A DNA stretch of 64,000 bases, taken from positions 14,358 through 78,357 of the forward strand of contig CAWBDD010000009.1 of NCBI GenBank assembly GCA_963787465.1. Reading direction: 5' to 3'. This stretch comes from an uncultured Thermoplasmata archaeon (GTDB taxonomy: Archaea; Thermoplasmatota; Thermoplasmata; UBA10834). Below are positions 3,838 through 20,194 of this stretch, in pieces. Positions within the stretch are counted from its first letter, which is position 1. The number at the start of each line of letters is the position of its first letter. The translations under genes and the position numbers were made by a program. The notes beneath the pieces were generated by a model. It was not told the DNA's origin. It ran no database searches and saw only the letters and a list, made by a program, of their open reading frames with translations.

Positions 3838-4731
3838 TCAGGTGAACCCGCCGAGGGTCATCTGGTCCTGGATGTCGATGTCCTTCTCCTCGTGCGGGAT
3901 GCCGAGGACGTCCATCATCTGGAAGGCGTTCTTGACCGCCTTCGCGCGGCCGTGGTTGTTGAAGTATATCCAGGCGTTCTCGCAGTTGGAGATCATCTCG
4001 GAGAGCCTGGGCTCCCACGAGGAGAGCTGGTCGTGGTCGTAGAGGTAGTCGTACCTGTTTATGCGGTAGTCGTCCTCCTTCTCGTCCTTGAACCATATGT
4101 CGTAGTTGCGGCCGTGGAACCTCACGTACGCGTGCTTGGCCGTCAGCGAGCGGGTCATGGGGAAGCCGGGACCGTCGATGATGACATTGGCCACCTTGAA
4201 CTCCTGGAGGACCTCGATGGCATCGGATGTGATCTCGTTGCCGCGCTCGTTGAGCCAGCTCCTGTGCCTGAACTCGATGGCGTACCTGTGCGCGTCCGTG
4301 TCGAGCATCTGGAAGAGCGCCCTGAGCCGGCCGAGGCTCTCCCTATCGGTCATCTTGAAGTAGGGTGAGAGCTGGATCAGGACACCCCCGAGCAGGCCCG
4401 CCTCCGCCAGGGGCTTGACGCAGATGGCCTCGAAACTCGACGCCTGTGCGACCGCCTTCTCGGCGGAGTCCTTCAGGATCGACTCGTGAGTGATCATCTG
4501 GGGCAGCTTCACGGAGAACTCGAAGCCCATGCGCTGCCGCGCCTTCTCGATCCACGATTTGACCATGAACTCGTTCGGGATGTGGTAGAAGGTGGAGTTG
4601 ACCTCGACCGTGCTGAAGTACCTCGAGTAGTAGGAGAACCAGTCGCCCTTCTTCGCGGCCATCTCGTTAGGGTAGAACCTGCCCACCCAGTCGTCGTAGG
4701 ACCACCCAGAGCAGCCTACCTGAGCCGCCAT
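3838..4731 (-). CDS. DUF72 (YecE-like) TIM-barrel protein
   Basis: N-terminal GCSGWSYDDW plus VEVNSTFY, FSVKLP, EFRHRSW, YVRFHGRN and YFNNH motifs. Confidence 0.9.
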   Translation of the reverse strand: MAAQVGCSGWSYDDWVGRFYPNEMAAKKGDWFSYYSRYFSTVEVNSTFYHIPNEFMVKSWIEKARQRMGFEFSVKLPQMITHESILKDSAEKAVAQASSFEAICVKPLAEAGLLGGVLIQLSPYFKMTDRESLGRLRALFQMLDTDAHRYAIEFRHRSWLNERGNEITSDAIEVLQEFKVANVIIDGPGFPMTRSLTAKHAYVRFHGRNYDIWFKDEKEDDYRINRYDYLYDHDQLSSWEPRLSEMISNCENAWIYFNNHGRAKAVKNAFQMMDVLGIPHEEKDIDIQDQMTLGGFT

Positions 4732-4790
4732 CGAGTTTTCAGATTACCTGTGGCTATAAGAACATTGGCTCAGGCGGCCGGGAACTGGGC

Positions 4791-4803
4791 AAAGCAATAT
4801 ATC
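4791..4803 (+). promoter_or_regulatory. BRE/TATA-like promoter for the H/ACA RNA
   Basis: AAAGCAATATATC lies ~25 nt upstream of the first hairpin (4827). Both flanking protein genes are on the minus strand, so no protein gene explains it. Confidence 0.55.
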
Positions 4804-4826
4804 CTACGGGAGGGCTAGTACCAGAC

Positions 4827-5033
4827 GCCTGGAAGATTATGCTGCTGACCTCATGATGCAGTGTTCCGACGCCAGGCTACAGTGCGCCGATTATGGGTCC
4901 CTCTACGAATCTTCGGTGAGACACCGTGACGTGTGTGGAGGACAACCCGGCGCTCAACACAACCCCCAGGAGGGTCAGGGCGGTGAGTGTGCGTGGGCAC
5001 GCCTGTGAACCGCGCTGTTACGCCTGGGGGACA
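4827..5033 (+). ncRNA. Box H/ACA pseudouridylation guide RNA with three hairpins
   Basis: HP1: GCCUGG/CCAGGC lower stem, pocket, AUGCUG/CAGUGU upper stem, K-loop CUGA-CCUCAU-GAUG, ACA at 4879. HP2: 4882-4955, followed by ACA at 4957/4959. HP3: CCCCCAGG/CCUGGGGG, pocket, K-turn (GA...UGUGA), ACA at 5031. In HP1 and HP3 the upper stem ends 14 and 15 nt before ACA. Confidence 0.8.
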
Positions 5034-5734
5034 ATCCAGGTCCCGGCCCGACCCTTCTTCGACCTGGCGAGCTTCGTGAGCCAGCCCTCCGCGTCCTTGT
5101 ACATCGAGAAGGCCCTCTCCCTCTCCCTGAACTCCTTCGTATGATGGATCCGCCTCGTCGGGCTCCCCTTCGCCTCCATCACTCCGTGAAGAAGCTCATG
5201 GTAGACGACGAACTCGAGCACGAACCTGGGGACCTTCTCCGAGTCGAGGACCTTGTTCACGGCCAAGAGGCTCAGCGGCTCGAAGTAGAATCCGAGCCTC
5301 GCCGCTGGGGACTCCTTCGCCCATGCCAGGTCCGGGCTCCTGATCCCGCCCTCAAAGTAGCACGCGTTCACGTAGTCGAAGACCGGCCTGAGATCCCTCG
5401 CCTCACCCCTCGCCCTGAACGAGAGGTTCCTCGCGCGTGACATGTACGTGTCCTTCTTCGGGACCCAGAGCTCGCGCGACCTCGCGTACCCGAGGTACTT
5501 GTCTGCCATGGCCTCCGGGCACTCCTTCTCGTACGCCCTGCAGAGGATGTACCAGGCGAACGCCTCCGCCACATCGTCTGGGGCGTGGTCCAGGTAATCG
5601 CTGACCCTCAATGTCAGGTGGCCACCTCGCCTCCTCCACGTGTGCTTGAGCTCGCTGTAAGGGTGGAACGAAACGGTGAGCCGCCCGCCCCCGAGCTGCT
5701 TGTTCACCGGCTTGAAAAAGGCATCCAGGTCCAA
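5018..5734 (-). CDS. SprT/YgjP-like zinc metalloprotease domain protein
   Basis: FVVYHELLH (HExxH) followed by HTKEF; RLGFY motif; TTG start. Confidence 0.75.
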   Translation of the reverse strand: MDLDAFFKPVNKQLGGGRLTVSFHPYSELKHTWRRRGGHLTLRVSDYLDHAPDDVAEAFAWYILCRAYEKECPEAMADKYLGYARSRELWVPKKDTYMSRARNLSFRARGEARDLRPVFDYVNACYFEGGIRSPDLAWAKESPAARLGFYFEPLSLLAVNKVLDSEKVPRFVLEFVVYHELLHGVMEAKGSPTRRIHHTKEFRERERAFSMYKDAEGWLTKLARSKKGRAGTWIVPQA

Positions 5735-20120: not shown

Positions 20121-20194
20121 GCGATGGTAGTGTAGATTGGTTATCACTTGAGCTTGCCAAGCTCAAAACTCGGGTTCAAATCCCGACCATCGCA
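20121..20194 (+). tRNA. tRNA-Gly (anticodon GCC), no encoded CCA
   Basis: Acceptor stem GCGATGG/CCATCGC plus A, anticodon arm TGAGC-TTGCCAA-GCTCA, T arm TCGGG-TTCAAAT-CCCGA; TATAAAT box at 20084. Confidence 0.97.

Follow-up and report, generated by a model that had tools for sequence, protein, structure and literature searches.

The closest described counterparts of the RNA analysed here are Pab40, Pf7 and Pho40 of Pyrococcus and Thermococcus (Rfam family HgcG, RF00064), box H/ACA sRNAs with three tandem hairpins and a promoter of their own. Transcription of Pab40 is reported to begin with the first base of motif 1 (PMC4652768), and motif 3 of this RNA makes the pseudouridine Psi2016 in helix 69 of the P. 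abyssi 23S rRNA in vitro (PMC2377435). Afu-4 of Archaeoglobus fulgidus, compared here through its published description, is likewise a three-hairpin H/ACA sRNA, and the targets proposed for its motifs 1 and 3 are the same as those of Pab40 (PMC2377435). The sRNA sR-h45 (HVO_2651s) of Haloferax volcanii has two hairpins, homologous to stems II and III of Pf7, a correspondence by which homology of the family across the Euryarchaeota was noted earlier (PMC2584109). The family has accordingly been documented in Thermococcales, in Archaeoglobus and, in a two-hairpin form, in haloarchaea. Experiments on Pyrococcus H/ACA RNAs have provided rules for such guides, with an upper-stem helix H2 of 5–6 bp and the ANA sequence placed 14–15 nt from the target U (PMC2377435, PMC4652768).

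The DNA examined here (the window) is a stretch of 64 000 nt from an uncultured member of the Thermoplasmata. We consider it very highly probable that positions 4827 to about 5036 of its plus strand form the functional gene of a box H/ACA guide sRNA that has three hairpins and a promoter of its own. The preliminary description had reported an unannotated RNA with three consecutive plus-strand hairpins, each followed by ACA (4827–5033), and all of these features are present. The Infernal/Rfam search that it proposed gives a significant full-length match to the three-hairpin H/ACA family HgcG (model positions 1–276, window 4769–5038, plus strand, 40.2 bits, E = 7.5e-10). The score is about half the curated HgcG cut-off of 77 bits, so that the locus is formally outside RF00064, and a default scan of the window at gathering thresholds consequently passes over it and reports only a tRNA. 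That tRNA lies at 20121–20194 on the plus strand (64.5 bits) and is the sole gathering-threshold Rfam match in the window. A second Rfam family, Pab160, matches hairpin 3 weakly.

The locus and Pab40 are collinear over the HgcG model, and share three tandem H/ACA hairpins and a promoter of their own. The pocket sequences of Pab40 motifs 1 and 2 are similar to those of the locus (GGGUCCC, ACAACC-like), and motif 3 shares with hairpin 3 its 3′ guide, UGUUAC, and its target in helix 69. In contrast, the stems are unrelated in sequence and the host is an uncultured Thermoplasmata archaeon. sR-h45 differs from the locus in having two hairpins with a long spacer, without stem I. The comparison indicates that the RNA is a distant, sub-threshold orthologue of Pf7/Pab40/Afu-4 (HgcG) and no new RNA class. 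A literature search found no H/ACA sRNA of Thermoplasmata, which is weak evidence as ‘H/ACA’ could not be matched as a string.

The extent of the RNA (4827–5036, about 207–210 nt) is drawn from the HgcG match, the limits of conservation and the covariation. A DNA search of 40 relatives finds the locus once in each of 24 genomes of the same family, which represent four genera, with 78–87% identity. The conserved block starts at about 4825–4827 in most of the matches and ends at about 5033–5039 in all of them. These limits coincide with the ends of the RNA, and the conserved block therefore contains little else. The 3′ end probably lies about 3 nt beyond the last ACA.

All three hairpins are built on the same plan. 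Each comprises a lower stem (6, 8 and 8 bp in hairpins 1, 2 and 3 respectively), an asymmetric internal loop that forms the pocket, and six to seven upper-stem pairs, above which there is a non-Watson–Crick pair and then tandem G.A positions. Starting at the 5′ end, hairpin 1 (4827–4881) has the lower stem 4827–4832/4872–4877 (GCCUGG/CCAGGC) and the upper stem 4839–4845/4858–4864. Its predicted pocket strands are 4833–4838 (AAGAUU) and 4865–4871 (UCCGACG). The upper stem leads into a K-loop at 4846–4857 (UGA...UGAU), in which C-G is followed by U.U, G.A and A.G (4845–4858). The hairpin proper (4827–4877) is followed by one U and the ACA at 4879–4881. Both the K-loop and the 14-nt distance to ACA are as described previously.

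Hairpin 2 (4882–4959) has the lower stem 4882–4889/4948–4955, the upper stem 4900–4906/4935–4941 and an apical stem at 4914–4918/4922–4926. The predicted pocket strands are 4890–4899 (AUUAUGGGUC) and 4942–4947 (ACAACC), and the ACA at 4957–4959 follows the hairpin (4882–4955) and one A. Its K-turn is a variant, with G4907-A4908 opposite G4933-U4934, and was rightly called less canonical: UGU is found where UGA is expected. This A-to-U change, in the second of the sheared pairs, occurs in all 24 family members, and other families of the class have AUGA. It may weaken the binding of L7Ae. The K-turn of motif 2 is unusual in Pab40 as well, where the P. abyssi RNA has a point substitution (PMC2377435).

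Hairpin 3 (4963–5033) has the lower stem 4963–4970/5023–5030 and the upper stem 4978–4984/5009–5016, with G5014 bulged. The predicted pocket strands are 4971–4977 (AGGGUCA) and 5017–5022 (GUUACG). The K-turn contains a tandem G.A/A.G, formed by 4985–4986 with 5007–5008, and its GA/UGA sequences are invariant in 24/24 genomes. The ACA at 5031–5033 directly follows the hairpin (4963–5030). The perfect 8-bp lower stem and the tandem-GA K-turn of the preliminary description are both borne out, but the spacing to ACA, given there as 15 nt, is 14 nt and becomes 15 if U5016 is counted.

The distance from upper stem to ACA is therefore 14, 15 and 14 nt in hairpins 1, 2 and 3, and an L7Ae-type K-loop or K-turn is present in hairpins 1 and 3, with the variant form in hairpin 2. 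This geometry fits the Pyrococcus H/ACA sRNP rules and the ‘10/5/9’ and ‘10/6/9’ fold families of PMC4652768. By analogy with the solved Pyrococcus RNPs, L7Ae would bind the K-loop or K-turn of each hairpin, and Cbf5–Nop10–Gar1 would bind the lower stem and the ACA box. The pocket strands would then pair with 23S rRNA on both sides of an unpaired U-N, placing the U, about 15 nt from ACA, in the active site of Cbf5 where it would become pseudouridine. The mechanism is taken from published structures and reconstitutions of the family (see PMC4652768, PMC2377435 and PMC7075261), and we infer that the present RNA is transcribed, assembles into RNPs and directs the modifications.

The fold favours the plus strand. 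The minimum free energy structure of the plus strand (−94.6 kcal/mol) has the three hairpins and lies below that of shuffled sequences (z = −2.36), and the minus strand folds no better than its shuffles (z = −0.90). In an alignment of the 24 family sequences 93.6% of cells are paired in the H/ACA structure. Both sides are changed in 16 pairs, compared with 6.9 ± 1.6 in column shuffles (0/500) and 3–5 in controls in which the partners were slid by 1–3 columns. Compensatory changes are found in seven of the eight named helices. RNAalifold, given 17 sequences and no imposed structure, arrives at these three hairpins as well and shows 11 compensatory pairs. Covariation, which had been suggested as a check, is thus present. 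Many G.U and U.G pairs are invariant (for example columns 80/105, 81/104, 150/177 and 226/267) and would become A.C on the minus strand; the earlier argument that G.U pairs favour the plus strand is upheld, and the z-scores agree with it.

These data bear on a different reading of the hairpins, in which they act on the minus strand, as the 3′ end or terminator of the mRNA of a neighbouring HExxH-protease-like ORF or the leader of a DUF72 gene, or in which the region encodes small ORFs. The region does follow one minus-strand gene and precede another, and short ORFs exist on both strands (4853–5008 plus and 4851–5000 minus). However, the loss of the conserved G.U pairs and the poor fold on the minus strand speak against it, and the plus strand is the one indicated by the ACA boxes, by the polarity of the K-loop and by the Rfam match. 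The substitutions follow the pairing of the stems and not codon positions, and indels of 1, 2, 4 and 5 nt among the relatives exclude the short ORFs of both strands. We regard this reading as extremely improbable, and describe the locus further as a plus-strand H/ACA gene.

The RNA is located in a gap of 286 nt (4732–5017) flanked by two minus-strand genes. The divergent neighbour (3838–4731) encodes a DUF72 protein (PF01904, 194.5 bits) and lies outside the RNA. The convergent neighbour (5018–5734) is an HExxH metalloprotease-like ORF. It had been named SprT; the HExxH motif is present, but there is no Pfam match at E ≤ 1e-3. The final five codons and the stop of this ORF run into hairpin 3, giving a convergent overlap of 16 nt (5018–5033). 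Its TAA stop is the complement of the UUA within the invariant guide element GUUAC of hairpin 3.

A BRE/TATA promoter, AAAGCAAUAUAUC, is predicted on the plus strand at 4791–4803, comprising a purine-rich BRE (AAAGC) and the TATA element AAUAUAUC. It is found where the preliminary description had put it, about 25 nt before hairpin 1. The pattern AAA..TA.A is invariant in all 24 family genomes, including the genus g4, and positions 1–57 of the Rfam HgcG model, which correspond to the promoter region of Pab40, align to the TATA region of the locus. The centre of the TATA element is about 26 nt 5′ of G4827, and this spacing predicts a start at the first base of the first hairpin, as in Pab40. The TATA sequence AUAUAU (4797–4802) is palindromic and lies 66–71 nt 5′ of the start codon of the divergent DUF72 gene (4731). 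It might serve both directions, that of the DUF72 gene and that of the RNA.

Within the family the stems vary, while the G.A dinucleotides of hairpins 1 and 3 and both pocket strands of hairpins 2 and 3 are invariant. The pockets of hairpins 2 and 3 remain unchanged while the stems covary, both in the 24 family members and in about 25 members of the class. ACA follows all three hairpins in genera g1–g3, but only hairpins 2 and 3 in g4. In the six genomes of that genus in which hairpin 1 has lost its ACA, the K-loop is also missing in four.

Losses of this kind raise the question of whether the locus could be a relic, an H/ACA gene in decay that has ceased to be transcribed or to function in the genus. 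Hairpin 1 has lost its ancestral guide (see below) and, in g4, its ACA, and the K-turn of hairpin 2 is degenerate. In addition, Cbf5 was not found in this metagenome-assembled genome (G000) or in G001, both of which are about 68% complete. Against this, four genera share without change the promoter, the G.A pairs and the ACA boxes and pockets of hairpins 2 and 3, and the stems keep their pairing by compensatory changes, a pattern of purifying selection on an RNA.

Of the protein partners, this genome contains Nop10 (76 bits) and L7Ae (98 bits). A Gar1-like ORF gives a weak match of 21.5 bits, similar to the match in the 98%-complete relative G010; the Gar1 matches are under the Pfam cut-off in 3/3 genomes searched. 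Cbf5 is found in eight of the nine other family genomes searched, namely in G010 (>370 bits) and in seven of eight more, including the congener G002, and the Cbf5-bearing genomes cover all four genera. The two assemblies of about 68% completeness from this genus are both without cbf5 and 16S and both have nop10 and the H/ACA RNA. Since they are incomplete and also without 16S, the missing Cbf5 is probably an assembly gap, a binning gap around ribosomal regions shared by the two. With Nop10 retained in G000 and Cbf5 present in the congener, we judge the relic reading very improbable and retain that of a functional guide gene.

Pocket complementarity to 23S rRNA on both sides of an unpaired U-N is found for hairpins 3 and 2, and is absent for hairpin 1. 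The organism’s own 23S gene, located on contig C17, was used (positions in it are given as own-LSU). The pocket of hairpin 3 pairs with 5′-GUAAC[U]A UGACCCU-3′ (own-LSU 1975–1988) in the loop of helix 69. The pairing comprises 5 + 7 = 12 pairs, a number reached by none of 1000 shuffled pockets, though the duplex of the 3′ guide is only 5 bp (−4.1 kcal/mol). The pocket elements GGGUCAG and CUGUUA of this hairpin are conserved throughout the class. In E. coli helix 69 has the sequence Psi1911-AAC-Psi1915-A-Psi1917, and from alignment of the motif we take the unpaired U of the hairpin 3 duplex (U1980) to be the equivalent of U1915. It is highly probable that hairpin 3 guides modification of U1980, as predicted from the pairing. 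A4977 of the guide pairs with the second U of helix 69, and so only the U1915 equivalent is predicted as a site. A second modification in helix 69 is possible.

The helix-69 pseudouridines of H. volcanii are guided by SL2 of sR-h45, with dependence on Cbf5 shown in vivo (PMC7075261). There SL2 leaves UNUN unpaired and modifies U1940 as well as U1942 (PMC7075261), whereas hairpin 3 presents a canonical UN and a single predicted site. Guidance of helix 69 by the eukaryotic RNAs snR191 and U19 is cited in the same paper (PMC7075261).

The pocket of hairpin 2, AUGGGU(C)/ACAACC, pairs with 5′-GGUUGU[U]C GCCCAU-3′ (own-LSU 2612–2625), in the A-loop. There are 6 + 6 pairs (a score of 11.5 pairs, attained in 5 of 1000 shuffles), with −6.1 and −7.3 kcal/mol for the two duplexes. 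Throughout the class, AUGGGUCC and ACAACCC(C) are conserved in the pocket. The U left unpaired, U2618, corresponds to E. coli U2555 when counted from Um2552/G2553. In yeast snR10 guides Psi2923 in the A-loop region; its E. coli counterpart, U2554, immediately precedes this site. snR10, snR191 and U19 thus guide modification of the same functional centres of the large subunit, although they have a two-hairpin H-ACA architecture without K-turns, unlike the locus. With moderate confidence we predict that hairpin 2 guides modification of U2618.

The comparison with the known systems offers another target for hairpin 2. For stem II of Pf7 and Afu-4 the target has been argued to be the counterpart of E. 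coli U2586, which is Psi2621 in H. marismortui, Psi2605 in H. volcanii and position 2678 in P. abyssi. Homologues of stem II have been assigned to this U by Grosjean 2008 (PMC2584109) and Muller 2008 (PMC2377435), and SL1 of H. volcanii sR-h45 makes Psi2605 in vivo (PMC7075261). By eye, the hairpin 2 pocket is complementary, through AACC(C) and GGUC, to GGGUU[U]A GACC of the own 23S rRNA. However, this gives only about 4 + 4 pairs, with the 3′ guide two nucleotides out of register, and the U would be 13 nt from ACA, outside the 14–15 nt rule. The duplexes, at −2.1 and −5.4 kcal/mol, are less stable than those with the A-loop, and the 3′ guide that is conserved class-wide, ACAACCCC, makes 8 pairs with GGGGUUGU of the A-loop. 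The U2586 equivalent is therefore an unlikely target, and here hairpin 2 would differ from SL1 of sR-h45. It would also differ from motif 2 of Pab40, which acts at position 1932 of 23S rRNA, since hairpin 2 fits the A-loop best. The predicted A-loop position of hairpin 2 is the one first proposed for motif 2 of Afu-4 (A. fulgidus U2601, equivalent to P. abyssi 2647; PMC2377435). Structural rules later cast doubt on that assignment (PMC2377435), but the pairing of hairpin 2 (15 nt to ACA, 6 + 6 pairs) does comply with them.

Hairpin 1 differs from the other two. Strict and flexible bipartite scans of the 23S rRNA give no target above chance (258 of 1000 shuffled pockets do equally well), and bipartite scans of the 16S rRNA of the relative G010, of 28 tRNAs and of the whole genome give none either; the 16S of G010 was used as the own 16S is missing from this assembly. 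A 10-bp match of the 3′ guide near position 765 of the G010 16S was rejected, having no U in register and no pairing of the 5′ guide. The 3′ pocket strand UGUUCCGAC is invariant in genera g1–g3 (UUCCGAC(R)), and the 5′ strand is variable apart from GGAA.

In other families of Thermoplasmata hairpin 1 has the pocket CGAAG/(U)GCAAG, found in 14 of 24 sampled genomes. The guides of hairpin 1 in family f8 and in the window’s own family differ from CGAAG/GCAAG, and those of hairpins 2 and 3 are fixed throughout. CGAAG/GCAAG would form duplexes of −6.8 and −9.6 kcal/mol with 5′-CUUGC[U]A CUUCG-3′ of the own 23S rRNA, around U2559. This U corresponds to E. coli 2496 and to the site of Pab40 motif 1, as reckoned from its offset to Psi2865 of yeast and Psi2588 of P. 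abyssi (PMC2377435). The pocket of hairpin 1 in the window, AAGAUU/UCCGACG, gives −1.4 and 0.0 kcal/mol with CUUGC[U]ACUUCG, and the target feature of motif 1 is absent. The motif-1 target of Pab40 (the P. abyssi U2588 equivalent) is thus unmatched by hairpin 1, yet still matched in other Thermoplasmata families. The ancestor of hairpin 1 would have guided modification within CUUGC[U]ACUUCG; replacement of the 3′ guide in this family would have left the hairpin an orphan, possibly retargeted.

One candidate for a new target was found. The new 3′ guide, CCGAC(R), together with GGAAG, which has been retained, could form duplexes with UGUCGG-C[U]-CUUCC around own-LSU U2574. This U, the equivalent of E. 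coli U2511, lies 15 nt 3′ of the ancestral site U2559. The pairing is atypical, having an extra unpaired C 5′ of the U and looped-out guide bases, and requiring the lower stem to be partly opened. At the U2511 equivalent yeast has Psi2880 and P. abyssi has Psi2603, the latter made without a guide (PMC2377435). We put forward this retargeting, as opposed to loss, of hairpin 1 as a tentative and rather improbable proposal. If true, it would, together with a guided U2555, amount to guide switching between neighbouring sites of the peptidyl transferase centre. In any case the locus provides a case study of a multi-hairpin guide in which one hairpin drifts or is retargeted and the other two are fixed, with no new principle or mechanism.

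The RNA extends well beyond this family. An exact-pattern scan of GTDB genomes with the 5′ half of hairpin 3 returned 42 contigs, all from metagenome-assembled genomes and labelled Thermoplasmata, Thermoplasmatota or ‘Methanobacteriota/Euryarchaeota archaeon’ (e.g. RBG_13_57_23, UBA10834 and UBA9653). The HgcG model finds a single match in each of 60 of the 151 genomes in a sample of the class (34/66 genera) and 62 of the 201 in a sample of the phylum (37/112 genera), with one above the cut-off in each sample; these counts are lower bounds, as the stricter filters used missed even the window’s own copy. The RNA is thus widespread and under-annotated in the Thermoplasmata and the wider phylum. 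The Pf7/Pab40/Afu-4 guide accordingly extends to uncultured Thermoplasmata and much of the phylum, with nearly all of the copies lying under the Rfam cut-off and so missed by Rfam-based annotation. Guided pseudouridines at helix 69 and the A-loop are testable predictions in a lineage without cultured members.

A repeated motif, CGUCGGAAGGCUACA, was also considered as an RNA and rejected, being part of a duplicated coding segment of an ABC-transporter ATPase. The segment (GPNGSGKST..., Walker A) is present in two near-identical copies, at C9:78242–78642, just past the 3′ end of the window, and at C17:51011–51411. The pair results either from a recent duplication or from an assembly artefact of strain variants.
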